Shown here: positions 11,942-36,250 of the stretch, piece by piece | Layout: each line of letters opens with the position of its first letter | Position numbering within the stretch: the stretch's first letter is position 1 | Source: Candidatus Multivoradales bacterium | GTDB taxonomy: Bacteria > Acidobacteriota > Thermoanaerobaculia > Multivoradales > JAHEKO01 | DNA: 64,000 nt | Assembly (NCBI GenBank): GCA_965223855.1 | Contig: CBDCXM010000009.1 | Span: 1,888,001 to 1,952,000, forward strand | Reading direction: 5' to 3' | Notes under the pieces: model-generated | Seen by the model: only the letters and a program-made list of their open reading frames with translations | Database searches by the model: none | Told to the model about the DNA's origin: nothing | Program-made: the position numbers and the translations under genes

Positions 11942-12126
11942 CTAGCTCGGACTTCTCACGCCGCTGCAGCCTGGTAGGCCGTATGTCACTGAATCTACTT
12001 CGTTTTCCGGTCGCTGCGCTCCTCGACGTAGCTACGGCTATGTCTCCAGTGCTCGCGACCGGAAGCCTCGCATCTTCAGCAACCTACGACCTACCAGACC
12101 ACTCCGGCGTGAGAAGTCCGGGCTAG
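11942..12126. mobile_element. MITE-like fold-back element A (185 bp) bounded by CTAG
   Basis: CTAG-CTCGGACTTCTCACGCCG ... CGGCGTGAGAAGTCCGGG-CTAG terminal inverted repeat (1 mismatch); nested pairs CTGGTAGG/CCTACCAG, TTCCGGTCGC/GCGACCGGAA, apical GTAGC-TACG-GCTAT. Confidence 0.75.
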
Positions 12127-12155
12127 CAACGAACCGAACTCGGGAGGATTTCGCC

Positions 12156-14273
12156 ATGCCGCGTAGCTCGTTTTCTCTGGCGCTCGCCGCCATCACGCTC
12201 TCGGCGTCCATTGTCGTCGCTCAGGACCGCTTCGGGGACGCCACCGACGTCGTCGTCGTCGAGGTTCCCGTACAGGTGCTGCGCGACGGCAAGCCGGTGC
12301 GAGGGCTGACGAAAGACGACTTCGAGGTTCTCGACGGTCGCAAGGAGGTCGACATCATCGCCTTCGACGTCATCGACCTCACGATCAGCGAGCCCGGGAG
12401 CGACGACTGGGAGCCCCAGACGGTACCCGCCGCCGGCCGGCGGCACTTCCTCCTTTTCTTCGATCTCTCGTTCTCGAACCCGGCGTCGATCGTCAAGGCG
12501 AGGGAGGCGGCGAAATCGCTCGTGAGGACTTCGATGCACCCCTCGGACCTGATCGGCGTGGCGACCTACTCCGCCTCAGAAGGGGTACGCTTCCCGCTCG
12601 GTTTCACTTCGGACCGGCGCCAGGTCGTCGTCGCGATCGACACCCTCGGGCTGCCGCAGATGGTCGAAACGGTGCGTGATCCGCTCGGCATCATCCTCGC
12701 CGACAACGAGGGGCTAAGGGAGGTCGAGATCTTCGGCCAGGACGCCGGCGGCGGCAATGCCGCCGGCATCGACGCCGAGGCGGAGATCCGTGAGGTTCTC
12801 GAGAGAATCGAGCGCGACGAGCAGGCGGCCACGAGCCGCAACGAGATCCTTGCTCTGTCGAGCGCGATGGGTGGCCTCGCCGATGCCCTCAACAGCATCG
12901 ACGGCCGCAAGCACGTCCTCTTCCTGTCGGAAGGCTTCGACAGCACCGTGGTGGTGGGCAGCGCCCGCGGAGCGACCTTCGAAGAGCAGCGACGGATCCA
13001 GCAGGTCAACGAGGCGGCGGCGTCGGGCCGTGTGTGGGAGGTGCAGTCGGACGAGCGCTTCGGCAATACCCAGACCCAGAACCAGCTCACCCAGATGCTC
13101 GACGAGTTCGTGCGGGCCGACGCGACGATCGAGGCGATCGACATCGGCGGGCTGCGCGACGCCTCCAACACTCGCAACGAGGACGGGCTCTTCCTGATGG
13201 CGAACGAGACCGGCGGCCAGTTCGTGAGCAATTTCAACGATCTGGGAGAGGCGATCGGAACGGTGCTGGAACGCACCAGCGTCACGTACCTGCTGGCCTT
13301 CTCGCCGCGGGAGGTGCGCTACGACGGCAAGTTCCGTGAGATCAAGGTGAAGCTCACGGACGGCGGTCGTGGCACGCGGGTCGTGCACCGCCCGGGCTAC
13401 TTCGATCCGCAGCCGATGTCCGCGATGTCTGGGATCGAGCGCCAGCTGTCCGCCGCGAACGCGATCATGGCGGGCCGGGCGGGGGGCGCGGTTTCCACCG
13501 CGGCGATCGCCGGCGCCTTCCCCCACGACGGCGACGTCTCCTACGTGCCGGTGCTCGTCGAGGCGGACGGACGCTCCCTGATCGGCAAGTTGAAGGGCAA
13601 GGTCCTGCCGACCGAGGTGTTCGCCTACGCCATCGACTCGAGCGGCGAGGTGCGCGACTACTTCTCGCAGACTCTCGGCCTCGACCTCGCCAAGGCGAGA
13701 GCGGCGCTCGAACAGACCGGCTTCAAGTTCTGGGGCAACCTCGAGCTGCCGCCGGGCGACTACGAGATCAAGGTGCTCGTCCGCAATGCCGAGACCGGCG
13801 ATTCCGGTCTGAGCATCGCTGCCGTCACCGTGCCGGGTAACGAAGCGGGCATGTCCCTGCTGCCGCCTTTCCTGCCGGAGCCCGGTGGGAAGTGGCTGCT
13901 GGCGCGCGAGCAGGGGGTCGACCCTTCGACCTACAGCTACCCCTACATGCTCGGTGATCAGGCGTTCATCCCCGCAGCCCGCCCGGCGCTGGGCGGCAGC
14001 GGCGCGCAGACCGTGAGCCTCGTCGGCTACCGGCTCGGGGGGGAGTCGATCGCAGCGCGTGCGGAACTGATCGATGCGAGTGGCAACAGCATCGAAGGTG
14101 TCGCCTTCCAGCTCACCGGCCGCTTCGCCGGCCGCGACGGGCTCGAGCAGCTCGTCGGTGATCTGTCGCTGGAGTCGATCCCGGCCGGCAGCTACGAGCT
14201 GAGGATGTCGGTGCGCGACATGGAGAGCGGTGCCACCGTGTCGAGTTCGGTCCCGGTCGACGTAGCGCTCTGA
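12156..14273 (+). CDS. Acidobacterial-type VWA domain protein (paralog 2)
   Basis: Same architecture as 9697-11865: GLTKDDFEVLDG, DLSFS, GRKHVLFLSEG, ANETGG, RPGYF; RBS GGAGG. Confidence 0.85.
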   Translation: MPRSSFSLALAAITLSASIVVAQDRFGDATDVVVVEVPVQVLRDGKPVRGLTKDDFEVLDGRKEVDIIAFDVIDLTISEPGSDDWEPQTVPAAGRRHFLLFFDLSFSNPASIVKAREAAKSLVRTSMHPSDLIGVATYSASEGVRFPLGFTSDRRQVVVAIDTLGLPQMVETVRDPLGIILADNEGLREVEIFGQDAGGGNAAGIDAEAEIREVLERIERDEQAATSRNEILALSSAMGGLADALNSIDGRKHVLFLSEGFDSTVVVGSARGATFEEQRRIQQVNEAAASGRVWEVQSDERFGNTQTQNQLTQMLDEFVRADATIEAIDIGGLRDASNTRNEDGLFLMANETGGQFVSNFNDLGEAIGTVLERTSVTYLLAFSPREVRYDGKFREIKVKLTDGGRGTRVVHRPGYFDPQPMSAMSGIERQLSAANAIMAGRAGGAVSTAAIAGAFPHDGDVSYVPVLVEADGRSLIGKLKGKVLPTEVFAYAIDSSGEVRDYFSQTLGLDLAKARAALEQTGFKFWGNLELPPGDYEIKVLVRNAETGDSGLSIAAVTVPGNEAGMSLLPPFLPEPGGKWLLAREQGVDPSTYSYPYMLGDQAFIPAARPALGGSGAQTVSLVGYRLGGESIAARAELIDASGNSIEGVAFQLTGRFAGRDGLEQLVGDLSLESIPAGSYELRMSVRDMESGATVSSSVPVDVAL

Positions 14274-14283
14274 GCCGGCGGGA

Positions 14284-16245
14284 TCAACGCCAGGGCGACC
14301 GGACGGGAGAGCCGTTGCGGTAGCGGTCGAGGTCTTCGGAGAGGGCGGCCGCCAGCCCTTCGTCGCCCGCGTTCCGTGATTCGACGAGCAGCCTCTCGGC
14401 CAGCCCGACGGCCTCCTCGAGCTGGCCGACCTCCGCGAGCGCCATCGCCAGGGTGCGGCCACGATCGAGGGTCGGTGCCGAGCGGATGAGTCCGCCGGCG
14501 ATCTCGAGCGCCCCTGGGCCGTCGCGCACGGAGTCGTCGTCGGAGGTGGCCAGCAGACGTGCGAGGGTGTTCTGCACCTCCGGCTGTCCGGGTTCGAGCC
14601 GAAGGCTCGATTCGAGGTGACTCCGGGCGTCGCGGTCGCGGCCGGCGAGCAGGAGGGCGATGGTGCGTCCGAGGCGACTCTCCCGGTCGCCAGGGTCGAT
14701 TTCCAGTGCGGCCGCGAAATGGTCCGCGGCCTCCGAGAAGCGCTGTTCGCGCCCTGCGATCGTCGCCAGCAGCCGGTGCGCGTCGATGAGTTGCGGTGTC
14801 AGCTCGAGGGCTCGCTCCAGACTGCCGCGGGCCGCGCCCAGATCACCCCGGCGCATGGCGATCGTCGCCAGCTGGAACTGCGCCGCCGCCTGCGACGGCT
14901 CGTCTGCCGTCGGCGCCAGATCCCGGAGGGCCCGAGCGGCGTCGTCGTCGCGTCCGATGGCGGACAGCACCTGGGCGATCCCGAGCACGACCTCGGCGTC
15001 GCCGGGGGCGCGTGCCAGGAGCGCGTCGAGGTCCTCGAGGGCGTCGTCGCTGCGGCCGAGGCGCGCCCATAGGAGATTGCGCTGCACCCGGCTCGAACGG
15101 TCCTGCGGGTCGATCGCGATGGCCGATTCGTAGTGCGTCAGCGCCTCCTCGAACTCGCCCTGTGTCGCCAGCAGTCCGGCGAGATTGACGTGCGAGTCCG
15201 AGTGGTTCGGGTCGAGTGCCAGGGCACCTTCGAGGTGCTCCCGTGCCTCTCCGAGCCGACCCACCCGACCGAGAAGGGTGCCGAGGTTGTAGCGCGCGCT
15301 GATGTCTTGCGGGGCACGTCGAATCGCTTCCTCGAACTGTGCGATCGCCTCGTCGACCGCACCGAGCTCGGCGAGAACGTCGGCGAGGGCGAGCCGGGCG
15401 TCGAGCAGGTCGGGTCGCTCCCGCAGCGCCAGCCGGTAGGCATCGATCGCCGTTTCGAGGTCGCCGGCGATCCGCGACTGCGCTGCCAGGGTGACGTAAC
15501 GCGAAGCGCCTCTCATCAGTGAGCCGAGCACCTCGATCGGCGGGTCGGGGAACCTCACCGGCTCGCGCCCCTGCCGGGAGAGCAGCTCGCGGGCGCGTTC
15601 GCGATCGCCGAGAGCCCGGTAGGCGAGGCCGAGCTGATAGGCCGCGGCGGTGGCCTGAGGCTGTTCCCTGAGGACCTCCTCGAGCAGGGGGGCAGCGATC
15701 TCCGGCTCCCCCTGCATCGTCGCGATCTGGGCGATGCCGTATCGGGCCGCGGCGGTTCCCGGCACCCGCTCCAGCACCGCCTCGAACTGCAGGCGAGCGT
15801 CTTCGAGCCGGCCGGCAGTGAGCAGAACCCGGGCGAGTCGGATCTGTGCCGGCAACCAGTCCGGCCGCAGTTCCAACGCGCGACGGAACCTCGCCTCGGC
15901 AGCCGCCGGGCGGCCGTCCTGCTCGTCGAGCACGCCGAGGTAGTACTCCCACAGAGGGTCGTCCGGCGCGCCCTTCGCCGCCTCCTCGAAGGCATCCCGA
16001 GCCGCGTCGAGCAGTTCGTAGGCGAGGAGCACGCGGCCGAGCTCGCCGTGGGCTCTAGCAGCGTCGTCGGCCTCGGCGCCGCTCGCGAGGGCGAGCATCT
16101 CCTCGACATGAGCCCGGATCGCCGGCTCCATGAGAGACAGGTCGGGTCGCGGGACGTCGGCCACCGCCAGGGTGGCAGACGCGATCCACGCGACGGCAGC
16201 GGCGCAGATCCGGCCCATCCGGGTGAAGGGGCGCCTGCCGGTCAC
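14284..16245 (-). CDS. Exported TPR protein
   Basis: Long TPR array; likely start GTG 16245 overlapping the upstream stop (GTGA), followed by a signal-like segment. The track start at 16824 is over-extended. Confidence 0.8.
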   Translation of the reverse strand: MTGRRPFTRMGRICAAAVAWIASATLAVADVPRPDLSLMEPAIRAHVEEMLALASGAEADDAARAHGELGRVLLAYELLDAARDAFEEAAKGAPDDPLWEYYLGVLDEQDGRPAAAEARFRRALELRPDWLPAQIRLARVLLTAGRLEDARLQFEAVLERVPGTAAARYGIAQIATMQGEPEIAAPLLEEVLREQPQATAAAYQLGLAYRALGDRERARELLSRQGREPVRFPDPPIEVLGSLMRGASRYVTLAAQSRIAGDLETAIDAYRLALRERPDLLDARLALADVLAELGAVDEAIAQFEEAIRRAPQDISARYNLGTLLGRVGRLGEAREHLEGALALDPNHSDSHVNLAGLLATQGEFEEALTHYESAIAIDPQDRSSRVQRNLLWARLGRSDDALEDLDALLARAPGDAEVVLGIAQVLSAIGRDDDAARALRDLAPTADEPSQAAAQFQLATIAMRRGDLGAARGSLERALELTPQLIDAHRLLATIAGREQRFSEAADHFAAALEIDPGDRESRLGRTIALLLAGRDRDARSHLESSLRLEPGQPEVQNTLARLLATSDDDSVRDGPGALEIAGGLIRSAPTLDRGRTLAMALAEVGQLEEAVGLAERLLVESRNAGDEGLAAALSEDLDRYRNGSPVRSPWR

Positions 16246-18047
16246 GGCGCCGCGAGGTCGGCCCACACGAGCACCCTGGCGGACGGAACTCCGCTCAGCC
16301 GGATCGAGCGCGCTCCCGGCCGGGTCAGTGTGACGCTCTCGATCGGAGTCGAAGCGCCGAGAAACACGCGCGGATCCCGTGCCGAAGCGTAGCTGCCGTC
16401 TCGCCTCGAGCGGCGCCACAGGGTCTCTCCCGAGGCGGTCTCGGCGCGAGCCTTCCAGCCGGTGCCGCCATCGCGCGAAGAGATGCCGAGCCATGGATTG
16501 GCAGGTGGAGCGCCGAGGAGGAGTCGGACCGGGCCGTCGTTGTTGCTGACCGCGATGTCCTCGTCGCCGTCGTTGTCGACGTCGCCGAAAGCGGAGCCGC
16601 GGCTGACCTCCGAGACGGCGAAGGCGGGCGCCGTGCCGCTGACCTCCTCGAATCGCCCGTCCCTCAGATTGCGGAAGATCTGGTTCGGCTGGTGGAGCGG
16701 GAACGGGTCTCCCGCCTCGACGAGCTCCTCGATCGCCCGAACGGCACCGTTGGCGACGAACAGATCGAGCCGGCCGTCGCGGTCGAAATCGATCCAGCCG
16801 GTGCCGAAGCCGGTGGCGACCCAACTGGTGCTGCCGAGGCCGGAGGTGACTGTCGCGTCATCGAAGACGCCCGTGCCGTCGTTGACGTACAGGGTGTTCG
16901 TCTCCCCTGTGAGGTGCGCCATGAAGAGGTCTTCGTCGCCGTCGCCGTCGAAGTCCCCGGCATCGACCCCCATCGACGCCTCGGGCTTGCCTTCCCAGTT
17001 GACGGCGGCACCGGCGAAGACCGCGTCGTTGAGAAACGAGCCGTCGCGCTGGTTGATCCGCAACTGGTTGGCCGTCATGTCGTTGGCGACGTAGAGGTCG
17101 ATCCAGTCGTCGCCGTTGAAGTCGGTGGCGACGACCCCCAGGGCGCCGCCGAACTCCTCCAATGCGCCTGAGGCAGGCGTGCCGTCCTCGAAGGTGCCGT
17201 CGCCGCGGTTGCGCAACAGACGGTCGGGAAAGGGACGGAAGGCGAGCGGCCCGCAATAGTCGGGTGCCCCGGTCGCATTGGTGCACGACGAGCCGGAAGT
17301 GAAGCGCTGGTCGACGTAGTTGCCGACGTAGAGGTCGAGGTGCCCGTCCCGATCGAAATCGGCGAAGGCTGCGGAGACGCTCCACCGGATGTCTCCGGCG
17401 CCGGAGGTCTCGGTGACGTCGGAGAAGGTGCCGTCGCCGTTGTTGCGCAGCAACTGATTGGGGCCGAAGTTGGTGACGTAGAGGTCGGTGTCGCCATCCC
17501 CGTCGTAGTCGCCGGCCGCGACGCCCATGCCGTAGTGAGGGGCGTCGATCGCGCTCGCCTCGGTCCGATCGACAAAGGCCAGCCGCAGCGCACCGTCGGC
17601 GTCGGCCCAGGCGTCGTTGCGATAGAGCCGGTCGGTCAGGGGCAACGAGCCGTCCGCCGGGGAGACGAGGGCGTCCTCGAGGGACTCTTCCGGGTTGGGA
17701 ATCCCCCCCTGGACGAGATAGAGATCGAGGTCACCGTCGCCGTCGAAGTCGAGCAGGCCGAGACCCGAACCGGTCACCTCGACGAGGTAGAGCCCGCCCG
17801 TGCGACCGTTGAAGTGGCGAAAGTCGAGGCCGGCCGTCTCGCCGACCTCCTCGAAGAGCGGTTTCGCCGCGCCTTCGGCGCGAGCGACTCCGGAGCCCAC
17901 GCCGGTGATGATCGCGAGAAGGGCCGCCAGCGCAAGTCGGGCCGGGCCTCGGGGGCGGGTCGCCCGCGACTGCGTCCGGGGGGACTGCGACTGCGACTGG
18001 GGCTGTGGCTGGGGCTGGGGCTGGGGCTGCGAGACGGGCTCCGACAC
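16242..18047 (-). CDS. CRTAC1-family FG-GAP repeat protein with ASPIC/UnbV-like C-terminus
   Basis: Repeated DFDGDGDLDLY / DYDGDGDTDLYVTN motifs, SRGSAFGDVDNDG, DGSYASARDPRVFLG. Confidence 0.9.
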   Translation of the reverse strand: MSEPVSQPQPQPQPQPQSQSQSPRTQSRATRPRGPARLALAALLAIITGVGSGVARAEGAAKPLFEEVGETAGLDFRHFNGRTGGLYLVEVTGSGLGLLDFDGDGDLDLYLVQGGIPNPEESLEDALVSPADGSLPLTDRLYRNDAWADADGALRLAFVDRTEASAIDAPHYGMGVAAGDYDGDGDTDLYVTNFGPNQLLRNNGDGTFSDVTETSGAGDIRWSVSAAFADFDRDGHLDLYVGNYVDQRFTSGSSCTNATGAPDYCGPLAFRPFPDRLLRNRGDGTFEDGTPASGALEEFGGALGVVATDFNGDDWIDLYVANDMTANQLRINQRDGSFLNDAVFAGAAVNWEGKPEASMGVDAGDFDGDGDEDLFMAHLTGETNTLYVNDGTGVFDDATVTSGLGSTSWVATGFGTGWIDFDRDGRLDLFVANGAVRAIEELVEAGDPFPLHQPNQIFRNLRDGRFEEVSGTAPAFAVSEVSRGSAFGDVDNDGDEDIAVSNNDGPVRLLLGAPPANPWLGISSRDGGTGWKARAETASGETLWRRSRRDGSYASARDPRVFLGASTPIESVTLTRPGARSIRLSGVPSARVLVWADLAAP

Positions 18048-18083
18048 GGCGGGACTCTACCAGCCGTCGGCTATCATGCCGGG

Positions 18084-20297
18084 GTGACGCCGAAGGCTCT
18101 TGCACTGGTCGTCGGGGGCTTCGCAGCGACGCTGTGTGGGGGCTTCGGCTGCGGCTCCGGGGACGCGCCGCCCTCCGCATCCGACGCCGTGGACAGCTCC
18201 TCCGAGCTTGCGTCGCCGGCAGCTGCCGAGTCGAGCGAATCGGGCGGGATCGTGGCTGCGCCCTTGCCGAGCATCGAGGTCGAGAACCTGGTGCTGATCA
18301 CGATCGACACCCTGCGCGCGGACCGGCTCGGCTTCGCCGGCCACGAGACCGCATCGACGCCGTGGCTCGACCGGCTCGCGTCCGCCGGCTGGGTGTTCGA
18401 CTATGCGCATTCTCACGGTGTCATGACCTTGCCCACCCACACCTCCATACTGACCGGGCGCTTGCCCTACGAGCACGGGGTGAGGGACAACAGCGGCTTC
18501 GTGCTCTCCGCTGAGGTTCCGACGGCGGCGACGCTTCTCGGGGCCGCCGGGTTTTCAACAGCGGCAGTGGTCGGAGCCTTCCCGCTCGACCGGCGGTACG
18601 GTCTCGCCCGTGGCTTCGACCTCTACGACGACGCTTATCCCGAGGGCGGCGGGCCGGGAGCGGTCGATCCCCAGAGGCCCGGATCGGAGGTCGTCGGCCG
18701 GGGCCTCGAATGGTGGCGCGACAACGTCGGGAAGCGGCGTTACCTCTGGCTTCACCTCTACGACCCGCACGCGCCCTACACGCCGCCCGCTGACGCTGCC
18801 GCCCGCGCCGGGGGAGACGCCTACGACGGCGAGGTCACGGTCGTAGACGATGCGCTGGCGCCGCTTCTGAGTCTCTTTCTCGACGGGGAGGAGCCGTCGA
18901 CCCTCATCGTCGTGACGTCGGACCATGGTGAGGCGCTCGGCGAGCACGGCGAGGTCACACACGGCCTCTTCGCCTACGAACCGACCCTCAGAGTGCCGCT
19001 CGTCCTGTGGGCGCCCGGGCTCGGATCCGGCCGGTCGAGCCGTCAGGTGCGGCACGTCGATCTGCTGCCGACGATGCTCGAGGCGGCCGGGGTCGAGGCC
19101 TCCGGGGTGCAGGCCGCCGAGCTGGCGCCGGGCGCCGCGGCAGGCGCCGGCGAGCTGGCCGGGACCTCGCTCTTCGAGCCGCCCTCCTCGTCGACGGCCA
19201 CCTACTTCGAGGCAATCACGGCGAGTCTCGACCGTGGATGGGCGCCGCTGCGGGGCGTGGTGCGCGGCTCGCGCAAGTTCATCGAGCTGCCGATCACGGA
19301 GCTCTACGATCTGTCGAGCGATACCTCCGAGAAGGACAACCTCGCCCCGGAGCGCCCGGAGGAGGTGGCCGGCCTCAGGACGGTGCTCCCGCCGGCTTCG
19401 GCCTGGCCGCCGGAGCGCGGCTCGGTCTCGGCGGAAGAGGAGCGCAAGCTTCGGAGTCTCGGCTATCTCGGAGGCTCGGCGGCGCCGAAGAAGGACTACA
19501 CGGCCGACGACGACCCGAAGCGGCTCGTGCATCTCGACCGTCAGGTGCACACCGCCATCGACCGCTACCATCGCGGCCGCCTCGACGAGGCGGAGCGGCT
19601 GTTGCGCGGAGTGCTGGCGGAGCGCCCCGACATGGGTGTGGCGTCGTACTACCTGGCGCAGACGCTGCTGGAGGACGGCCGTCTGAACGAGGCGGTGGAG
19701 GTGATGTCTCGGGCTCAGCGCCGGGGCTCGGCGACCACCGCGCTGCGCCGCCAGCTCGGACTCTCCCTCGGCGCCCTCGGACGGTTCGACGAAGCGATCG
19801 ACGCCCTCGAGCCGTTGGCGGAGGCCGGGGAGACGGAAGCGATGCGGGCGCTCGGACAGGTGCTTTCGGATGCCGGGCGGCTGAGGGAGGCGGAGGCGAT
19901 CCTCAACCGCATCTTCGAGATCGACTCTCGCTCCCCCGAAGCTCACGAAACGCTCGCCCTGAACGCTCTGCGCGCCGGCGACTGGCCGACGGCCCAGCGG
20001 CAGGCACGGCTGGCGCTCGATCTCAACGACCGCCTCGACCAGTCCTGGAACTACCTGGGATCGGCGCGCTATCAGCTCGGGGATCGGCGCGGTGCGTTCG
20101 AGGCGTGGCGTCGTGCGGTGGAGCAGGGAATCGAGAATTTCGACGCGCTCTACAACCTCGCGATCGTCGCGCGCGAACTGGGGGAGAGTGACGCGGCCCG
20201 CTCCGCGCTGCGGCGCTTCCTCGCCGGTGCGCCCCGTGGGCAGTACGGCGAGGACCTCGCGACGGCGCGGCGGTGGCTCGACGAACTGGGCGGATGA
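18084..20297 (+). CDS. Sulfatase-fold lipoprotein with C-terminal TPRs
   Basis: GTG 18084 then signal ending in Cys; LVLITIDTLRAD, HSHGVMTLPTHTSILTG, WLHLYDPH, TSDHGEALGEHGE, LRSLGYL, TPRs. The track start at 17340 is over-extended. Confidence 0.85.
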   Translation: MTPKALALVVGGFAATLCGGFGCGSGDAPPSASDAVDSSSELASPAAAESSESGGIVAAPLPSIEVENLVLITIDTLRADRLGFAGHETASTPWLDRLASAGWVFDYAHSHGVMTLPTHTSILTGRLPYEHGVRDNSGFVLSAEVPTAATLLGAAGFSTAAVVGAFPLDRRYGLARGFDLYDDAYPEGGGPGAVDPQRPGSEVVGRGLEWWRDNVGKRRYLWLHLYDPHAPYTPPADAAARAGGDAYDGEVTVVDDALAPLLSLFLDGEEPSTLIVVTSDHGEALGEHGEVTHGLFAYEPTLRVPLVLWAPGLGSGRSSRQVRHVDLLPTMLEAAGVEASGVQAAELAPGAAAGAGELAGTSLFEPPSSSTATYFEAITASLDRGWAPLRGVVRGSRKFIELPITELYDLSSDTSEKDNLAPERPEEVAGLRTVLPPASAWPPERGSVSAEEERKLRSLGYLGGSAAPKKDYTADDDPKRLVHLDRQVHTAIDRYHRGRLDEAERLLRGVLAERPDMGVASYYLAQTLLEDGRLNEAVEVMSRAQRRGSATTALRRQLGLSLGALGRFDEAIDALEPLAEAGETEAMRALGQVLSDAGRLREAEAILNRIFEIDSRSPEAHETLALNALRAGDWPTAQRQARLALDLNDRLDQSWNYLGSARYQLGDRRGAFEAWRRAVEQGIENFDALYNLAIVARELGESDAARSALRRFLAGAPRGQYGEDLATARRWLDELGG

Positions 20298-23115: not shown

Positions 23116-23138
23116 TCTTTCTCGCCCCTTGCTAACGT
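23109..23138 (+). promoter_or_regulatory. sigma70-type promoter for tRNA-Val/thrS
   Basis: TTGACA-18 bp-TAACGT with TG of an extended -10. Confidence 0.55.
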
Positions 23139-23182
23139 CTGCGCCCCGGCGGTGCCGGAAGGCTTTGCCGGAGCCATTCTAA

Positions 23183-23454: not shown

Positions 23455-23478
23455 AACTCCGCTCTCCGGAGGTTGGAC

Positions 23479-25398: not shown

Positions 25399-25403
25399 TC
25401 GAA

Positions 25404-26105: not shown

Positions 26106-26119
26106 ACCTCGGAACAGCC

Positions 26120-26584
26120 CGGTAGTGCCCGGCCCTCCTCCCGCGCTCGGGCTGTTGTCCCCGAGGGGGACGTCGCGCGTACTCGGTTGGACGACCGGCA
26201 GCGCGCGCTCTCTCACCTTCGGGCGACGACCTGCTCGAGAAACACGGAGTGCTTTCGGCCCTCGGCATCGCCGGCCGCAGGTCGGCGCGGGAACACAGCC
26301 CCTGGGCTGGCTTGGCCAGCCCCCTCGGCCGACAACACCCCGAACGCGGGAGAGAGCGCCTATCGTTGTCGCAGTAGCGAGACGACGGGGGTCTCGTGGC
26401 AGAGCTTGTGGCTAGGCGCCCGGGAGGCGGAATGCCCTTGCAGGGGGGCTCTCGCCGAGGCCCGAAGGCATCTCACTAGCCTGCAGCGGCTGTCGGCCGA
26501 CGGCGAGAGAGCGCGCGCTGCCGGTCGTCCAACCGAGTACGCGCGACGTCCCCCCTGCGGGGGCATTTCGCCTCCCGAGGCGCC
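26120..26584. repeat. Inverted pair of structured repeat modules with an identical 50-bp core
   Basis: 26165-26214 is the exact reverse complement of 26505-26554; each copy lies inside its own long outer stem. Confidence 0.85.
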
Positions 26585-26628
26585 GGCGGAAGCACCCCGA
26601 TCTCTCAGCGACGGTCCACACAGGGGGG

Positions 26629-26657
26629 TTGTCTGGCTTCCCACACCCCCCTATAAT
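26629..26657 (+). promoter_or_regulatory. sigma70 promoter for rpmI-rplT-pheST
   Basis: TTGTCT-17 bp-TATAAT, 26 bp upstream of the rpmI GTG; RBS AAGGAG. Confidence 0.75.
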
Positions 26658-26683
26658 CAGCGGCCGTTTGGAAGGAGTACGCC

Positions 26684-26878
26684 GTGCCGAAGATCAAATC
26701 CCATCGTGGCGCCAGCAAGCGCTTCAAGACCACCGGAACCGGCAAGGTCCGGCGCCATCACGCGGGACATTCCCACATCCTCACCAAGAAGACCCAGAAG
26801 CGGAAGCGCAAGCTGCGTTCGAGCACGCTCGTCAAGGGCAAGTTTGCCCATGACATCAAAGAGCGCATCAGCGACTGA
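26684..26878 (+). CDS. rpmI: 50S ribosomal protein L35
   Basis: [22 protein letters not shown]...[17 protein letters not shown]. Confidence 0.98.
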
Positions 26879-26992
26879 CGCTTCGGTAGCTGTACGAACC
26901 GACGGCGGAACGAACCTGTCCGTCGCGGTCGCCATCGGCTTCGCCCTGAAGCCTGAACCGCCCACCCCGGGCGAGATGAAACGAGGTTCACG

Positions 26993-27397
26993 ATGAGAGT
27001 CAAGCGCGGAAACAAGCGCACGAACAAGCGCAAGAAGGTCCTGAAGCTAGCCAAGGGCTACTACGGACGGAAGTCGAAGGCCTACAGGGTCGCCAAGGAG
27101 GCGGTCGATCGGGCGGGGCAGTTCGCCTATCGCGACCGCCGCAACAAGAAGCGGTCGTTCCGGCGGCTGTGGATCGTGCGCATCAACGCCGCGGCGCGCC
27201 TCAACGGCATTTCCTACAACCGCCTGATCGAGGGACTCAGGAAGGCGGGCGTCGAGGTCAACCGCAAGATGCTCGCCGATCTCGCGGTGCGCGACCCGCA
27301 GGGCTTTACGCAGTTGGCCGAGATCGCCAAGAAAGAGGTGAGCTCGACGGCGAGCTCCCCGGCGATCGCGGCGGACGCGAGCTCCGAGGAGGAGTAG
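26993..27397 (+). CDS. rplT: 50S ribosomal protein L20
   Basis: MRVKRG...LAKGYYG...[25 protein letters not shown]...[10 protein letters not shown]; short acidic C-terminal extension. Confidence 0.98.
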
Positions 27398-27400
27398 CCG

Positions 27401-28471
27401 ATGGCCGGAGGTGAGACTCCGGACCTTCTGGCGACGATCGAAGCGGATCGCGACCTGTTCGACCAGGAGGTCGAAGAGGCGACGGCTGCGCTCGACGGCG
27501 ACGCTGCCGAGGCCGCTGCCGGCCGCGAGGCGCTGCGCCTTCGCTGGATGGGGCGGAAGAACGGCCGGGTACGGCAGCACCTGAAATCCCTCGGCGCTGC
27601 GGCTCCGGAAGAGCGAGCTGCCCTCGGCAAGGCGATCAATGACCTCAAGACGGAGGTCGACCGCAAGCTCTTCCTCCTGGAGGAGCTTGCGAGTTCCGGC
27701 TCCGGCGGGGCAGAAGCCGGCCTCGACGTCACGCTACCCGGTCGGCGCCCACAGCTCGGCTCGCTCCACCCGGTCTCGATCGTCACCCAGGAGATCGTCG
27801 AGATTTTCGCCTCGATGGGCTACTCGGTCGCCGAGGGGCCGGAGGTGGAAGAGGACTACTACAACTTCGAGGCGCTCAACTTTCCGCCGGATCACCCGGC
27901 GCGCGACACCCAGGACACCTTCTTCGTCGAGGGTGGGAAGCTGCTGCGCACCCACACCTCGCCGGTGCAGATCCGCACGTTGCTCGAGCGCGGCTCGCCG
28001 CCGATCCGGGTGATCTGCCCGGGGCGGGTGTTCCGCAACGACAACGACCTGCGGCACTCGCCGATGTTCCACCAGGTCGAGTGCCTGGTGGTCGATCGGG
28101 GCATCACCTTCGGGCACCTCAAGGGGACGCTCGAGGCGTTCGTCCAGAAGCTCTTCCGGCCCGACACCGGGGTGCGCCTGCGCCCGAGCTACTTCCCGTT
28201 CACCGAGCCGTCGGCGGAAGTCGACATCACCTGTCCCTTCTGCCAGGGGGGCGGCTGCCAGACCTGCTCGAACTCGGGCTGGATGGAGATCCTCGGTTCC
28301 GGGATGGTCGATCCCCGAGTGCTGGTGGAGTGCGGGGTCGATCCTCGCGAGTACAGCGGCTTCGCCTTCGGCCTCGGTCTCGACCGGGTGGCGATGATCC
28401 GCTTCGGTATCCCGAACATCCGGACGCTCTTCGACAACGACGAGCGGCTGTTGCGGCAGGTGAGGGGGTAG
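27401..28471 (+). CDS. pheS: Phenylalanine--tRNA ligase alpha subunit
   Basis: HPARDTQDTF, LLRTHTSPVQIR, RPSYFPFTEPS, CPFC..GC..C insert, GFAFGLGLDR. Confidence 0.98.
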   Translation: MAGGETPDLLATIEADRDLFDQEVEEATAALDGDAAEAAAGREALRLRWMGRKNGRVRQHLKSLGAAAPEERAALGKAINDLKTEVDRKLFLLEELASSGSGGAEAGLDVTLPGRRPQLGSLHPVSIVTQEIVEIFASMGYSVAEGPEVEEDYYNFEALNFPPDHPARDTQDTFFVEGGKLLRTHTSPVQIRTLLERGSPPIRVICPGRVFRNDNDLRHSPMFHQVECLVVDRGITFGHLKGTLEAFVQKLFRPDTGVRLRPSYFPFTEPSAEVDITCPFCQGGGCQTCSNSGWMEILGSGMVDPRVLVECGVDPREYSGFAFGLGLDRVAMIRFGIPNIRTLFDNDERLLRQVRG

Positions 28472-28474
28472 GCG

Positions 28475-30537
28475 ATGGATCTGTCGCGTAACTGGATCGG
28501 CCGCTACGTCGAGCTGCCTTCGCTCGACGAGCTGTGCGACGCGCTCACCACCGTCGGCCTGGCGGTCGAGGGGCGCGAGGAGCGGGGTGACGACGTGCTG
28601 CTCGACGTCGACGTGACGACGAACCGGCCGGACTGCATGTGCCATCTCGGTCTCGCGCGCGAAGTGGCGGTGCACCGGGATCTTGCGCTCCAGGTGCCGG
28701 AGGTCGAACTGCACGGAGACCGACGAACAGGCCGCCGACGTGGTGCGGGTGTCGATCGAGGACGGCGAAGGGTGCCGCCGCTTCGTCGCCCGGGTGGTGC
28801 GGGGTGAAGGTCGGGCCGAGCCCGGACTGGCTGCGTGAGGCGCTCGAGTCGATCGGCCAGCGGTCGATCAACAACGTCGTCGACGTCACCAACTTCGTCC
28901 TCTGGGAGAGCGGTCAACCGGTGCACGCGTTCGATCTCGGCAAGCTCGGTGGTGGCGAAATCCGTGTACGTCGGGCGGGAGCCGGAGAGACCCTGACCAC
29001 CCTCGACGGCGAGGAGCGCGAGCTCGACGGCGACCTCGTGGTCGTTGCCGACGCCGAACGCCCCGTGGCGCTCGCAGGCATCATGGGTGGTCTCGACAGC
29101 GAGGTGACGGAGGGGACGGCCGACGTCCTGATCGAGTGCGCCCACTTCGACCCGACCCTGATCGGCAAGGGAGCGCGCAAGCTCGGCATGCACACCGACG
29201 CGAGCCACAGGTTCGAGCGTGGTGCCGACCCGGAGGCGCCGGTGTGGGCCAGCGCCCGCGTCGCCCAGCTGGTTCTCGAAGTCGCAGGCGGAGAGGTTTG
29301 CGCCGGCGCGGTCGACGTCCGCTCCGAGCAGTATCCGCCGGTGCTTGCCGGGCGGCTCGACTTCGACCGACTGCAGGCGTTCTGCGGGCTCGAGCTCGAG
29401 CGTTCGGAGGTGGTGCGGATCCTGACCGGCCTCGGTTTCGGGCTCGACGATCTCGACTCGGAAGGTGGAGACGGCTGGCACGTATCGGTCCCCTCCTGGC
29501 GCTATCACGACATGCGCTACACCTCCGCCGACGGCTCGGTCTACGAGGCCGATCTCTTCGAAGAGGTGCTTCGTCAGGTCAGTTTCGATCGGGTTCCTTC
29601 GGCCCTGCCGCCGTTCGACCTTCCCGACCCGGGCAGCAGCGAGGCGCACCACCGGCGGCAGACGATCCGCCGTCAGCTCGCCGCCAGCGGCCTGGCGGAG
29701 ACGATCAGCTACGCCTTCCACGCCGGCGCCGCCGACGGCAGCTACGGCATCTGGTCGAGGGCGAGCCGGTGCGGCTGGCGAATCCGCTCTCCGAGCTCTA
29801 CGACGTCATGCGGCGCTCGCTTGATGGTGGGGCTGGCGGATCGGGCGCGGTACAACCTTCATCGCCAGGCCGACGCCGTGCGGCTCTTCGAGTGCGGGGT
29901 GGTCTTCCCCGGCCCCGACCTTCCCGAGGTCGAAGTGGTCGGTGTCGTGATGGGCGGCGCGCCCGGCTTCGAGTGGCAGTATCCGCGGACCGAACCGCGG
30001 GTTTTCGACCTCTACGATCTCAAGGGGTGTTTCGAGTCGCTCGCGGAGCGTTTCGGCACACGGTTGGAGGTGGAGCCGGCGGCGCTCCCCGGTGTGATCG
30101 ACGGCACCGGTGGAAGGCTGTCGACCCCCGGAGGAGCCGTGTGCGGCTGGATCGGCCACCTCGATCTCGGCGATGCGCCCTTCCCCGTCTTCGGCGGTGA
30201 ACTCGAAGTCGCGCCGCTCGCCGCGGGCGACCGTTTCGTCGCCGTCGAGACGCCCTCGCGGTTCCCGGCCGTGACGATGGACCTCACCCTCACGCACTCC
30301 GGGAGCACGCCATGGAGTGACTTGCGGGCCGCGGTCGAGCATGCCGGGCAGGAGGACCTCGTCGACTGCCTGTTGAAGGACCGCTACGAGGGCAAGGGTG
30401 TCCCGGAAGGCGCCGTCAACACCACGATCCACTTCGTCTACAATTCAGTCGATCGCTCGCTGACCCAGGAGGAGGTCAACGAGCGGCACCAGCGGCTCTC
30501 GAAGGCCCTCGAAGAGAGGTTCGGCTGGAGCGGCTGA
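28475..30537 (+). CDS. pheT: Phenylalanine--tRNA ligase beta subunit, short form lacking the B2 OB-fold; four apparent frameshifts
   Basis: TNRPDCM.HLGLAREVA, INNVVDVTNFV, DASHRFERG, DLFEEV, NPLSELYDVMRRSL (in an alternate frame), anticodon-binding C-terminus; frame breaks near 28714, 28800, 29750 and 29822. Confidence 0.93.
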
Positions 30538-30572
30538 CCTACGACGCTCGCGCGAACAGGTGGGAGGCAACG

Positions 30573-30842
30573 ATGGCGGCGAACCCCAAGTGGCTCAAGG
30601 ATCTCGACTCGAACGTCGCGGCAGCCGTCAAGGAGCTCGCCAACCTCCGGCGGCAGAACAAGAGCCTCAAGACGCAGCTCGACAAGGCCAAGGCGGCGAC
30701 CTCGGCGGCCGAGAAGAAGGCCAAGGCAGCCGCTGCAACCGCTGCAGAGCCCGACCCGCAGATCGAGGCGTGGAAGACCGAGCGCAAGGAAGTGCGGCGC
30801 AGAGTCGTGCGGCTGGCGAAGAAGCTCGAAGAGCTGGCCTGA
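30573..30842 (+). CDS. Small coiled-coil protein, ZapB-like
   Basis: 89 aa heptad-rich protein ending ERKEVRRRVVRL; RBS GGAGG; sits after pheT where zapB-like genes commonly precede zapA. Confidence 0.6.
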   Translation: MAANPKWLKDLDSNVAAAVKELANLRRQNKSLKTQLDKAKAATSAAEKKAKAAAATAAEPDPQIEAWKTERKEVRRRVVRLAKKLEELA

Positions 30843-31029
30843 CGGCCCTCCGCTGAATCCGGCGCGCTGAGATCGGACGCCGAGGCCAGGCGGCTGACTC
30901 GTTCGCCCGAGGCCGGTCCGCGCATGCCGGGAGGCTGCGTGAGCTCCCTGGTGGAGCAGGGCCTACCCGAAGCCGTTCGGAACTTCCGTTCTCCTGACTG
31001 CGTAGATTGCCTCAGAGGAGGAACGTCCG

Positions 31030-31989
31030 ATGCCTGAATCACGCCTGTCCCGACTTCGCCCGGCCGCCCGGCTGATCGTCCTGTCCGCCTTGCTGCCGGT
31101 CGTCCCGGCGACGGCCGCCGTCGCCGGTACCGTCGACCGCGAGTACTCCGAGTCGTTCGACGTCTCCCCGGGAGCGACCCTGCGGCTCTTCCACGACGAC
31201 GGCGACGCGACGATCACGCCATGGTCCGAGGATCGGCTCGAGGTCGTCGTCCGCTACCACGTCGTATCGCGCGGCATCGGAGGGCCGCGCGACTTCGAGG
31301 TCGACTTCGACCGCTCGGGCGACACGATCACCGTGGAGGGGCGGGAGATCGGTAGCAACCTGTCGTTCGGCAGCTCCCGGACCCACGAGTACACGTACGC
31401 GGTGAAGGCGCCGTCGTACGTCACCCTCGAGCTCTCGGGCGACGACGGGGACGTCGCCGTCCGTGGCTGGGAGGCTCCGATCGACATCGACATCGAGGAC
31501 GGCGACGTCAGGATCGACGGCCTCGACGGCGACCTATCGGTGAAGAGCGACGACGGCGATCTCGAGCTGTCGGACATCCGCGCCGGCAGCGCGACGGTGA
31601 TGCTGCAGGACGGCGACGTATTCCTGCGCGGAGGCTCCGGAGAATGGAGGCTCACCCTCGATGATGGCGATTTCGACGCCACCGGGCTGGAGGCGACCGC
31701 GCTCGACATCGAGACGTCCGACGGCGACGTGGACATCGAACTCGCTCCGACCGCGAGACTCGAGGCCAGCGTTCGCACCAGCGACGGCGATGTGACGATC
31801 GTCCTTCCGCCGTCAGCGGCACTCGAGTTCGAGATCGAAGTCGACGACGGCCGGGTCTCGCTGCCGGACTCGGGGGCGATCGTCGGCAGTCGCAGCGGGG
31901 ACCGCACTCTCGGGCGAGTTGGCGACGGCAGCGGCGGCCGGCTCGACATCCGCACCCGCGACGGGAACGTCACACTGCGGGATCAGTAG
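31030..31989 (+). CDS. DUF4097-family beta-strand repeat exported protein
   Basis: Signal peptide; repeated (T/S/D)DGDV motifs. Confidence 0.8.
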   Translation: MPESRLSRLRPAARLIVLSALLPVVPATAAVAGTVDREYSESFDVSPGATLRLFHDDGDATITPWSEDRLEVVVRYHVVSRGIGGPRDFEVDFDRSGDTITVEGREIGSNLSFGSSRTHEYTYAVKAPSYVTLELSGDDGDVAVRGWEAPIDIDIEDGDVRIDGLDGDLSVKSDDGDLELSDIRAGSATVMLQDGDVFLRGGSGEWRLTLDDGDFDATGLEATALDIETSDGDVDIELAPTARLEASVRTSDGDVTIVLPPSAALEFEIEVDDGRVSLPDSGAIVGSRSGDRTLGRVGDGSGGRLDIRTRDGNVTLRDQ

Positions 31990-32048
31990 TCGGCTGCACT
32001 GTAGCCGGTGCCACAGACCGGCGGCCGCTGTCGGCTTAGCGTCAGGAG

Positions 32049-35030
32049 GTGATTACAGGAGAGGTGATTCCAGGCAGGTATGCGTGGTTCGCCCTGGCCG
32101 TCGCGTGCGCGGGGGCGCTGACGCCCGCGGCGCTCGCGGCCGGCGCCGTCGATTTCGACATCGTCTACGTCCGGCAGCCGCGCTTCGGCGATCTCGTGAA
32201 CACGACCTGGCCGGAGATCTTCCATCCGGCGCGCGCCGACCCGGGCGCCGACCTGATGCTGCTCCACCCCGACGGCAGCGAGGAGGTGCTGGTCGATTGC
32301 ACGGTCTGCTCGGTGACCGACCCGTTTGTCTCCTTCGACGGAGAGGCGGTCTACTACGCGCTCTTCCATGACCTCACCCAGGTCAACGGACAGCGAAACG
32401 ACCTGCCGCTCCTCGGGGCCGATCTCTTCCGCATCGATCTCGAGACACGGGTGATCACCCAGCTGACCTTCGGGGAGTTCACCCCCAACACCGGCGCCGG
32501 CAACTGGGACGAGTCGAACCCGCTCGACCCCGATCCACAGTTCAATCGCCTCGGCTACGGCGTCCTCAACCTCGGGCCGGTGCCGGTGGCCGGCGGGCGG
32601 ATCGCGTTCACCTCGAACCGCAACGGCTTCACTCCGCCGAAGACGTTCACCGCGCCGACGATGCAGCTCTACGTGATGGACGAGGACGGCTCGAACGTCG
32701 AGGCGATCGCGCCGATGTCGATCAACTCGGCTCTCCATCCGACGCCGCTCGTCGACGGTCGACTGATGTTCTCGAGCTACGAGAGTCAGGGTTTGCGGGA
32801 TCGGCGCCTCTGGGGCATCTGGACGATCCAGCCCGACGGTCGGAACTGGGCGCCGATGGTGAGCGCCTTCCGCTCGCCCCAGGCCTTCCACTTCATGACC
32901 CAACTCTCGGGCGGCGACATCGTCGTCGTCGACTACTACAACCTCAACAACAACGGGTTCGGAGCGCTCCTGCGCTTTCCGGTCGATCCACCGCCGGGTG
33001 AGCCGCCGTTTCACAGCGCCTTCCCCGACGAGAACCCGGCGATCAACCAGACGGTCGGCGGGGGATTCCTCTACCCCTACCGGATGTCGTTCACTCCCAA
33101 AGGGGCCTACTCGATCTCGCCGTTCACGCACGGCAACGACGAGGCGGCTCCGGAGGGGAGCGGTGGGGTCAGGGTGGGGAAGTTCACCCACCCGTCGGCC
33201 GCACCGGCGAACGACCTGCTGGTGGTGTGGACTCCCGGCCCGGCGAACGATCTCAACCGGCCGACACCGCTGCCGTACTACGACGGCGGCCTCTACCTGC
33301 TGCCGGGAGGGGACGAGATCTGGGATCCGGCGGCGCTCGTGGAACTCAGGAACGACCCTGCCTACAACGAGGCGTGGCCGCGGGCGGTCCTCTCCTATGC
33401 GGACCTCTACGGAGTCGCCGAGCCCGCCGAGCTGCCGTGGCTTCCGAACGACGGCTCGCTCCATGCCGAGCTGCCGCCAGGTACCCCGTACGGCCTCGTC
33501 GGCTCGAGTTCGCTCTACCACCGCGAGAGCTTCCCGGGTCACGTCAAACCGTGGGCCGACACCTTCGACGGGCTCGACGCCTTCAACACCTCCGAGAACG
33601 GCCAGTCGAGCAACTGGAGCTTCCAGGGCGCGGACGCCGGCAGCTACGACGACAGCGAGATCTGGGCGCTCAGGATCGTCGCTCTCGAGCCCAATACTCA
33701 CCGCAGCTACGGGCCCAACGACGGGCGGCACTTTCACAACCATGCCAACGAGCGTCATCGGATCCTTGGCGAGATCCCGGTGCGAAAGTTCGACGGTGAC
33801 GGCGATCCTGTGCTCGACCCGCACGGCAACCCCGACACGAGCTTCCTGGCGAAGATCCCGGCGGATACGCCCTTCACCTTCCAGACCCTCGACCGCAAGG
33901 GGAGGATGCTCAACATGGCGCAGACGTGGCACCAGGTCCGGCCGGGGGAGATGAGGGTCAACTGCGGCGGCTGCCACGCTCACAGCCGACAGCCGCTCGC
34001 TTTCGAGAGCACGGCGGCCGGCCAGGCGGGCTATCCGGTCTGGGATCTGACGGAGGAGACTCCGCTGGTCACCGCCGACGGTGCCGGCGACCCCGATCTG
34101 CTGGTGGTGCCGGCTTCGCTGGTCGACGTCGAGTTCCACCGCGACATCCGTCCGATCCTCCAGAGCCGCTGCGTGAGCTGCCACACGCAGACCGACGCCA
34201 CGCCGCCCGCCGATCTGGTGCTCGACGACCTCGCCTTCTACGACGGACTGCCGGGCGATTACAAGCGCCTTGCCGACGACAGCGACGCCGACTTCGGCCT
34301 GCCACCTGTGATCTCGAACGGCACCTGGCGTCAGACCAACGCCAGCCGGTACGTGCGCAAGTTCCAGAGCCGTCGCAGCCTGCTGGTGTGGAAGATCCTC
34401 GGCGAGCGTAGCGACGGCTGGACCAACGCCGACCATCCGACCGAGTCGATCCCGGGAGACCCGTCCACCCTGCCGCCTGGAGCGGAGGCGAACGAGGCCG
34501 ACCTGGACTTCGTCGGCTCTGCGATGCCGCCGCCCGGCCATCCGCAGCTGACCGAGGAGGAGAAGCGGGCGTTCGTCCGCTGGATCGACCTCGGTGCGCC
34601 GATCGACACGGCGGAGGGCTCGGCCGACGACGCCTTCGGCTGGTTCCTCGACGACCTCCGCCCGACCCTGACGATCCACGAGCCGGCGGCGGGGGTCATC
34701 CATGACGCGGGTCTCTTCCGGATCGGAATGGCGGACGCCAACAGCGGCCTCGACCTCGCGAGCTTCTCGCTGCGCGCCGACTTCACGGTCGAGGGCAGAT
34801 CGCCGGGGAGCGAGCTTGCGGATCTGGCGGTGCTCGAGGACACCGGGGTGTGGGTCGTGCCGTTGTCGCAGCCGCTGCCCGGGCTCGCCGAGGCGCATCT
34901 CTTCGCCGAGGTCCGGGACCTCCAAGGCAACGTCGTCAGGGTCGATCGCAGGTTCGCCACTACCGAGACGGTGTTCGCCGACGGCTTCGAGTCGGGCGAC
35001 ACCTCGGCGTGGTCGGTGACCCGGCCCTGA
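32049..35030 (+). CDS. Large exported c-type heme protein with a hydrazine synthase alpha middle-domain-like region
   Basis: Signal peptide, propeller-like N-terminus (DPFVSFDG, IAFTSNRNG), SFLAKIPADTPFTFQTLD...WHQVRPGE..NCGGCH, second CVSCH, C-terminal VFADGFESGDTSAWS. Confidence 0.75.
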   Translation: MITGEVIPGRYAWFALAVACAGALTPAALAAGAVDFDIVYVRQPRFGDLVNTTWPEIFHPARADPGADLMLLHPDGSEEVLVDCTVCSVTDPFVSFDGEAVYYALFHDLTQVNGQRNDLPLLGADLFRIDLETRVITQLTFGEFTPNTGAGNWDESNPLDPDPQFNRLGYGVLNLGPVPVAGGRIAFTSNRNGFTPPKTFTAPTMQLYVMDEDGSNVEAIAPMSINSALHPTPLVDGRLMFSSYESQGLRDRRLWGIWTIQPDGRNWAPMVSAFRSPQAFHFMTQLSGGDIVVVDYYNLNNNGFGALLRFPVDPPPGEPPFHSAFPDENPAINQTVGGGFLYPYRMSFTPKGAYSISPFTHGNDEAAPEGSGGVRVGKFTHPSAAPANDLLVVWTPGPANDLNRPTPLPYYDGGLYLLPGGDEIWDPAALVELRNDPAYNEAWPRAVLSYADLYGVAEPAELPWLPNDGSLHAELPPGTPYGLVGSSSLYHRESFPGHVKPWADTFDGLDAFNTSENGQSSNWSFQGADAGSYDDSEIWALRIVALEPNTHRSYGPNDGRHFHNHANERHRILGEIPVRKFDGDGDPVLDPHGNPDTSFLAKIPADTPFTFQTLDRKGRMLNMAQTWHQVRPGEMRVNCGGCHAHSRQPLAFESTAAGQAGYPVWDLTEETPLVTADGAGDPDLLVVPASLVDVEFHRDIRPILQSRCVSCHTQTDATPPADLVLDDLAFYDGLPGDYKRLADDSDADFGLPPVISNGTWRQTNASRYVRKFQSRRSLLVWKILGERSDGWTNADHPTESIPGDPSTLPPGAEANEADLDFVGSAMPPPGHPQLTEEEKRAFVRWIDLGAPIDTAEGSADDAFGWFLDDLRPTLTIHEPAAGVIHDAGLFRIGMADANSGLDLASFSLRADFTVEGRSPGSELADLAVLEDTGVWVVPLSQPLPGLAEAHLFAEVRDLQGNVVRVDRRFATTETVFADGFESGDTSAWSVTRP

Positions 35031-35050
35031 CGTCCCACGGCGCCCGCCCT

Positions 35051-35330
35051 CTAGGGGCTTGCTGAAGAACCCTCGTGGGTCGCGCGCCAAGGGTTTGTGG
35101 TGCAGATCCAAGGCGCGAGGAGGAGGCGATGCCGTAGCATCGTCGACGACGAGCAACGCCGGAGATGTGCCGCAACCCCTTGGCGCCCTTCGGGTTGCGG
35201 CGGTGTGGAGGCTCCAGCTGCGTTGCTGCGGCTCAACGATGCCACCGCATCGCCTGCGCCGCAGACGCCTCGCTGGAGCCACCACAGCGTCCGCAACGCG
35301 ACCCACGAGGGTTCTTCAGCAAGCCCCTAG
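35051..35330. mobile_element. MITE-like element C (280 bp) bounded by CTAG
   Basis: Perfect 34-bp terminal inverted repeat CTAGGGGCTTGCTGAAGAACCCTCGTGGGTCGCG; two internal long hairpin arms; no transposase. Confidence 0.85.
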
Positions 35331-36245: not shown

Positions 36246-36250
36246 CCGGG

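Follow-up and report, generated by a model that had tools for sequence, protein, structure and literature searches.

Two families of CTAG-bounded fold-back repeats in a Multivoradales chromosome and a hairpin cassette that they may share

A 64,000-nucleotide stretch of chromosomal DNA from Candidatus Multivoradales bacterium (hereafter the window; assembly GCA_965223855.1, contig CBDCXM010000009.1, positions 1,888,001 to 1,952,000) contains two small fold-back repeats, elements A and C, that begin and end with CTAG. Our analysis leads us to favor, with a probability of about 0.6, a model in which A and C represent two families resembling miniature inverted-repeat transposable elements, or MITEs, that target CTAG in an IS630-like or IS5-like manner, have interiors related by descent or recombination, and keep their palindromes at the level of the DNA. 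The original prediction for this region held that a covarying hairpin module, selected for its structure as RNA or single-stranded DNA, is carried by more than one kind of non-autonomous element. All of the coordinates and strings that it gave are present in the sequence, and A and C are, as it described, CTAG-bounded fold-backs whose ends are unrelated apart from CTAG itself. It would have been abandoned had no further copies existed, but they do exist: C recurs in three other metagenome-assembled genomes (MAGs) and A has one relative, in keeping with non-autonomous repeat elements.

CTAG is scarce in the window, which has a G+C content of 68%: 30 occurrences are observed against 107 expected from a Markov model or 189 from mononucleotide composition, so that finding it at each of the four ends of A and C is not chance. 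The terminal inverted repeats of A measure 22 nt including CTAG and contain one mismatch, and the ends of C are complementary at 34 of 34 positions. Element A folds end to end into a single hairpin (−109.8 kcal/mol, z −13.8; none of 200 shuffled sequences does as well) and C folds into a Y made of a terminal stem and two hairpin arms (−213.2 kcal/mol, z −16.2). Alignment identifies arm 2 of C as an inverted paralogue of arm 1, and the degenerate third copy of the hairpin that had been reported in C (CGATGC-CACC-GCATCG) is real and forms the apex of this second arm (Table 1). The available text of PMC11602168 puts bacterial MITEs at about 50–800 bp, a range that includes A (185 nt), its relative A′ described below (183 nt) and the copies of C (60–280 nt). 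The terminal repeats reach the length of at least 10–15 bp that is looked for in MITEs and recur in conserved form in other genomes; neither element is long enough to encode a transposase; and C is multi-copy. What points to MITEs, as PMC3733652 and PMC11602168 define them, is the size of the elements together with their inverted ends, absence of coding capacity, placement between genes, dispersed copies and deletion derivatives that have lost whole arms. A search of proteins of 33–105 aa gave no relative for the single open frame in A (60 aa), a result that is uninformative since it depends on spurious gene calls.

The dispersed copies come from 24 loci (L001 and so on), each a match to one 18-mer from the end of C; the genome of the window is not among them. 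Thirteen of the 24 have C-type ends and belong to three MAGs, two labelled Acidobacteria or Acidobacteriota (JAPUJD01 and JAOTZA01) and one Gemmatimonadota (JAZDDE01). The remaining 11 have no likeness to C past the 18–21-mer, which by an arithmetic estimate is about the number that chance would supply for an 18-mer there. Copies of the element lie in L003, L007, L009, L017, L018, L021 and L023. JAPUJD01 alone has element bodies in at least five places with different flanks (L003, L007, L009/L023, L017 and L018), and the matches between loci stop at the element borders to within a few bases. The copy in L018 is full length (279 nt), 84% identical to C and in the opposite orientation, with a near-twin at another site in L017. 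In L003 arm 2 is shortened, L007 retains arm 2 alone, L009 has a collapsed form of 60 nt, and the copies in L021 and L023 are cut by contig ends; several solo or truncated C-type ends are also found among the loci. In the Gemmatimonadota-labelled MAG, C-type ends surround an unrelated 286-nt single long hairpin (L021 110–395, −216 kcal/mol) on a 5.7-kb contig that itself ends in a normal C copy. Arm-wise deletions and identical ends around different interiors make this family a clean natural illustration of the rebuilding of fold-back elements.

Two loci offer further views of such rearrangement. L009 93–152 and L023 1–144 have the same flank on two contigs of one MAG, with the collapsed C in the first and a full copy, cut at the contig end, in the second; the difference is either a population polymorphism, in which both arms were deleted, or an assembly effect. 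L014 contains a 25-nt mini-palindrome (14283–14307), a C-type end with CTAG on both sides placed directly after another CTAG, that may be a remnant or footprint.

The relative of A was not recovered by blastn of A against the 24 loci, which gave no match, and turned up by chance in a scan of these loci for inverted repeats. This element, A′ (L001 5035–5217), has CTAG at both ends and also folds on itself (−92.5 kcal/mol, z = −8.5). Read on the reverse strand it is collinear with A and identical in 106 of 185 columns (57%). A 16-mer around the motif ATCT-N4-CGTT is 15/16 identical in the two, above the conservation of their terminal repeats.

Both junctions are CTAG in A, A′, the window copy of C, L003, L009 and L018, and no further duplication lies outside CTAG. 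The first base varies in two diverged or solo ends (GTAG and ATAG). Since CTAG stands at both junctions of two families whose ends are otherwise unrelated, the simplest explanation is a common target. We envision a scenario in which a transposase supplied in trans would bind the 22–34-bp ends and cut and paste the element into CTAG, duplicating either the central TA, as in the IS630/Tc1-mariner style, or the whole of CTAG, as in the IS5 style. The junctions are compatible with TA duplication, with CTAG duplication and with CTAG as the end of the element, and do not choose among them. The interiors would be built from a hairpin cassette of roughly 60–100 nt, consisting of ATCT-N4-CGTT, a stem capped by a short loop, and then GCCTYG. 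C would hold this cassette twice, in inverted orientation, and the A family probably holds a diverged copy of it, inherited from a common ancestor or passed from one element family to another by recombination. Compensatory changes would arise from upkeep of the DNA palindrome, through templated correction between its halves and co-evolution of the ends, rather than from selection on an RNA fold. Should transcription of the neighboring genes on the same strand extend through them, the elements would give rise to RNA hairpins of very high stability, and processing or stability could be affected as a side effect.

The proposal that the two families have a cassette in common rests on the apexes of their hairpins. 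A 12023–12047 and the reverse complement of C 35122–35146 are identical at 19 of 25 positions, and the six differences are those originally described: two swapped pairs (TA/AT), one G.T that becomes G-C and one A-T that becomes A.C. The flanking motif ATCT-N4-CGTT...GCCTYG, also part of the original prediction, is real. It occurs twice in the window, on the + strand in A and on the − strand in arm 1 of C, where shuffled sequence would give 0.03 (0 of 100 shuffles had two), and among the 24 loci its two parts are found together only in A′ and in arm 1 of L023, a C arm of another genome. Local alignment of A with the reverse complement of C scores 34, a value reached by none of 2,931 random window pieces compared with A (maximum 28) and by none of 2,920 compared with C (maximum 32). 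Scans for apexes, motifs and models covered 358 kb, the 64-kb window plus 294 kb of loci. An 8-bp stem with a 4-nt loop forms 3,997 hairpin apexes in this sequence, and those nearest to the 25-mer of A are apexes of C arm 1, at 19, 18, 17 and 17 identities; one unrelated apex, inside a HAMP-repeat coding sequence, scores 18/25, and the next best scores 15. Both the pairwise and the apex-anchored nulls place the A/C match at about 1 in 3,000–4,000.

Several observations weigh against our model. For the mobile-element part, CTAG could belong to the element rather than be a duplicated target. No transposase is present among the 41 open reading frames (ORFs) of the window or the 13 beside solo ends, which is weak evidence from the 64 kb and 294 kb covered, and no autonomous insertion sequence with matching ends was seen in the window or beside solo ends. 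The genes next to solo ends are housekeeping ones, among them those for UvrB, an HslV-like protein adjoining a XerC/D-type tyrosine recombinase, and malonyl-CoA decarboxylase. The A type has been seen once per genome, in two genomes, and a purely selfish element does not explain why its motif is kept better than its terminal repeats between A and A′. Contigs end within about 150 nt of four C-type matches and, since MAG assemblies break at repeats, solo ends and some of the variants could be assembly artefacts. For the cassette part, we built the covariance model that the original prediction had called for from ten C-family arm cores only (model R1), with the structure supplied by hand; RNAalifold on these ten cores failed to give the apex hairpin. 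Model R1 scores C arms at 60–86 bits and leaves A at noise (10.5 bits, E = 6.6, rank 43 of 59). Profiles made from C arms with nhmmer put A at E = 8.7 and 6.8, also noise, and leave A′ unmatched, and neither R1 nor the two profiles detect a cassette outside C-type elements in the 358 kb. The comparison of A′ with C is at background, with 938 of 1,936 null pieces as good, in a null that had also taken in other C-family fragments (maxima 59 and 93); the significance of A versus C rests on the random window pieces and not on this contaminated set.

These profile scores and the background-level match of A′ also favor the alternative that A and C are unrelated MITE-like elements and that the 19/25 match and the flanking motifs reflect coincidence or convergence of GC-rich hairpin tips. 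The same alternative is helped by the coding hairpin that reaches 18/25, by a comparison that was picked after the fact, and by the dependence between the two arms of a hairpin: identity along one entails identity along the other, so that the 25 positions are not independent and 19/25 overstates the evidence. We nevertheless consider it unlikely. Not one of some 2,900 random pieces reaches the pairwise score, and apexes of C take the first four ranks among all those compared, with a single tie at 18. The match joins one apex to the other and is accompanied on either side, in unchanged order, by one flanking motif, which is conserved in the independent copy A′. We judge common descent of the cassette in A and C to be plausible, with odds about even or slightly higher.

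The original prediction proposed a structure-selected RNA or single-stranded DNA module, with a UNCG loop, on more than one kind of mobile element. Such a module would be carried for the sake of some function, for instance as a signal for processing, stability or protein binding. In favor of this reading are the similarity of the A and C apexes above matched nulls, the retention of the internal-loop motif ATCT-N4-CGTT/GCCTYG in A′ despite 57% identity overall, the maintenance of hairpins through two-sided changes, and the position of both window copies inside gene pairs that are likely co-transcribed. Arm 1 of C also folds 18 kcal/mol better on the sense strand (−64.4 on + versus −46.3 kcal/mol). 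The pattern of change within the families argues otherwise. In the apex of C arm 1 none of the six pairs has changed on both sides: three are invariant, one has changed on one side (U-A to U.G) and two are broken in one copy. In the apex of arm 2 the sole change, read from the alignment, is one-sided. Absence of significant covariation had been named in advance as telling against the module, and this is effectively what the apex stem of the C family reveals.

Two-sided changes do occur elsewhere. Comparison of A with A′ gives them at 10 of 68 pairs, six of them in the outer helix (three within the terminal repeat), two in the middle and two at the apex; C arm 1 has them at 4 of 38, three in the outer stem and one just below the six apex pairs. 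Because such changes run along whole hairpins and into the terminal repeats, they are a property of the palindrome and not of the module. Terminal repeats are constrained as double-stranded protein-binding sites, so paired changes there reveal co-evolution of the two halves at the DNA level, and templated correction in quasi-palindromes is a known mutational route. Compensatory changes in a transposon palindrome extend even into its protein-bound ends and must not be taken as proof of RNA structure.

The loop and the strand point the same way. The claim that a C(UACG)G loop is kept stands for A and for arm 1 of the window's C and does not extend to all of their relatives: the lower stem is still present in A′, where two of its pairs differ on both sides and the G.T is unchanged, and a 7-nt loop stands where A has two closing G-C pairs and the tetraloop, so that the cap is absent, and among ten C arms the loop is TACG in six, the others being TATG, GACG, GATG and CACC. 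Folded as RNA, A is more stable on the strand antisense to the flanking genes (−126.0 versus −108.0 kcal/mol sense) and C is more stable on the sense strand (−213.2 versus −197.6 kcal/mol antisense). The TACG-bearing strand is the weaker folder in both elements, and the UACG loop lies on the sense strand in A and on the antisense strand in C arm 1. A conserved loop, a consistently transcribed strand and a covarying stem, which define a UNCG-capped RNA motif, are not found here; the covariance model recovers no cassette outside C-type elements, and Rfam offers no relative. Nothing shows that the cassette is a selected RNA structure, and we regard the structure-selected module as improbable.

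A related idea is that the cassette, with its symmetric ATCT/ATCT internal loop, its CGTT...GCCTYG motifs and its short capped stem, is a unit selected in its own right and captured by at least two transposon families, a speculation to which we attach little credence. Such a unit could offer a host or transposition factor a place to dock on extruded DNA, or act as an RNA processing signal. Independent selection would explain why the unpaired motif is 15/16 identical in A and A′, above the terminal repeats. If the cassette is functional it would constitute a portable structured signal spread by transposons, and why an unpaired motif should be common to two families and conserved across both presents a modest puzzle. 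An IHF site was considered for ATCT-N4-CGTT and rejected against the consensus, with a spacing off by one and one core base that differs. The elements have practical consequences as well. They come from poorly known soil and sediment bacteria (the MAGs labelled Acidobacteriota and Gemmatimonadota), C-type elements break MAG assemblies, and, at 12–76 nt from gene ends or starts, the elements matter for annotation and possibly for operon expression.

Table 1. Positions of elements A and C and of their parts in the window.
Feature	Position	Strand	Description
Element A	11942–12126	none	185-nt CTAG-bounded fold-back repeat between + strand genes 9697–11865 and 12156–14273
A left terminal inverted repeat	11942–11963	+	CTAG plus 18 nt
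A 5′ cassette motif ATCT-N4-CGTT	11993–12004	+	Surrounding 16-mer 15/16 identical in A′
A apex hairpin	12025–12044	+	8 bp including one G.T; loop TACG on +
A 3′ cassette motif GCCTCG-C-ATCT	12065–12075	+	
A right terminal inverted repeat	12105–12126	−	One mismatch relative to left repeat
Element C	35051–35330	none	280-nt CTAG-bounded Y-shaped fold-back between + strand genes 32049–35030 and 35342 onward
C left terminal inverted repeat	35051–35084	+	34 nt, perfect, starts CTAG
C arm 1 hairpin cassette	35084–35186	−	CGTT...TACG...GCCTTG orientation on −
C arm 1 apex hairpin	35125–35144	−	TACG loop on −, CGTA on +; 19/25 partner of A apex
C arm 2, paralogous cassette in opposite orientation	35192–35300	+	Apex CGATGC-CACC-GCATCG at 35237–35252
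C right terminal inverted repeat	35297–35330	−	

The window encodes housekeeping functions (thrS, rplT, pheS, pheT, RNase Y, 6S RNA and two tRNAs) and numerous TPR, sulfatase and polysaccharide genes. Element A begins 76 nt past the stop of a 722-aa ORF and ends 30 nt ahead of where a 705-aa ORF starts, with the two of them on the + strand; neither of these large ORFs has a Pfam match. Its right arm contains a 10-mer, TCTTCAGCAA (12072–12081), that is identical to the core of the right end of C (35311–35320), with about 0.1 such identities expected by chance on an arithmetic estimate. Element C lies 21 nt past a 993-aa ORF and 12 nt ahead of an alpha/beta-hydrolase ORF, again both on the + strand. 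The upstream ORF contains a hydrazine-synthase-alpha middle domain (PF18582, E 1.2e-13). The downstream frame (35342–37267) is open for 641 codons, with the hydrolase domain confined to residues 48–282 and its last ~1 kb running antisense through a FabH-like gene (36251–37381); it is probably a spurious antisense frame or carries a frameshift. The 6S RNA gene (37766–37953, 84.6 bits) sits directly upstream of the RNase Y gene (38007–39566). A third fold-back, element B (26165–26554), is located between an M50 peptidase gene and rpmI/rplT and has 63-nt arms that are 95% complementary, and a fold of −301 kcal/mol (z −13.9) is computed for the region around it (26150–26575). CTAG does not form its ends, model R1 detects no cassette inside it, and blastn finds no relative in the 24 loci.

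Both families appear to be undescribed, as far as a limited set of checks can tell. In line with the original prediction, no Rfam family matches A or C: the three hits of the window at the gathering score, to 6S RNA and two tRNAs, all lie outside A, B and C, and a relaxed scan returned only long-hairpin plant miRNA-precursor models, of which the best, MIR918, scores 47.3 bits where its threshold is 268. Blastn of A and C against plasmid and phage collections gave no match. Scans of the A and C regions for promoters and terminators found 0 sites, so A and C are not intrinsic terminators. The four end sequences, searched as strings, occur in no paper of the literature covered, and a literature search for MITEs in Acidobacteria or Acidobacteriota gave no such elements, in a body of text that does not extend to the MITE catalogue in the supplement of PMC11602168.

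Among known systems, repetitive extragenic palindromes (REPs), their inverted doublets (REPINs) and the associated RAYT transposases resemble A and C in being intergenic palindromes that form inverted hairpin doublets and may be mobilized in trans. One could imagine a tyrosine (HUH) transposase, of the RAYT or IS200/IS605 type, that recognizes the hairpins in single-stranded DNA, with the conserved tetranucleotides beside the stems as cleavage or guide sites; the motifs conserved across both families at the hairpin foot and the inverted doublets of C would suit this idea, and the accessible part of PMC3733652 reports tyrosine transposases associated with terminal inverted repeats in Acidobacteria. 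We give it next to no weight, since long terminal inverted repeats with CTAG at both ends are foreign to such systems, A and C measure 185–280 nt where the same text describes REPs as 20–40 nt with a GTAG or CGTC tag and without terminal inverted repeats, no such tag is seen by eye at the foot of the stems, and no RAYT was seen, with no Y1 transposase domain in any of 54 ORFs scanned (41 in the window and 13 in the loci).

The fold-back MITEs ERIC and NEMIS/Correia are closer in general character. In the excerpted text of PMC3733652 they are 70–300 bp long, have terminal inverted repeats and lie beside coding sequences, and their robust folds can stabilize or destabilize mRNA. The likeness to A and C is one of description only, in size, terminal inverted repeats, position next to genes and strength of folding. 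ERIC and NEMIS/Correia reside in Proteobacteria, and the Y form and arm-wise deletions of C have no counterpart that we could cite for them.

The insertion behavior of A and C is better matched by elements related to IS5 and IS630. MITEPsy1 of P. syringae pv. phaseolicola is IS5-related, 100 nt long and bounded by terminal inverted repeats of 18 nt; according to the portion of PMC3189936 that we draw on, its parent is ISPsy2 and it inserts at CTAG or YTAA, duplicating those 4 nt. Like it, A and C are small and non-coding, and their junctions are compatible with CTAG duplication. Counted by hand, the printed left end of MITEPsy1 agrees with the end of C after CTAG at 11 of 18 positions, including CTGAA, a weak match (about 1e-3 for one fixed alignment) that was chosen after the fact; the ends of A are unlike those of MITEPsy1. 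That element is not described in this portion as a full-length or Y-shaped hairpin, and its parent insertion sequence is known, whereas none was found for A or C. Among MITEs, the available text of PMC11602168 also names MITEEc1_IS630. No IS630-type transposase or matching end was seen here. The IS630 family itself, in the part of PMC2170065 consulted, inserts into TA and duplicates it, and a title in the reference list of that paper includes the words "to TA in the 5′-CTAG-3′ sequence". By analogy, a preference of this kind would yield the CTAG...CTAG junctions of A, A′ and C around an element proper that runs from G to C, and the GTAG and ATAG variants would fit duplication of TA alone.

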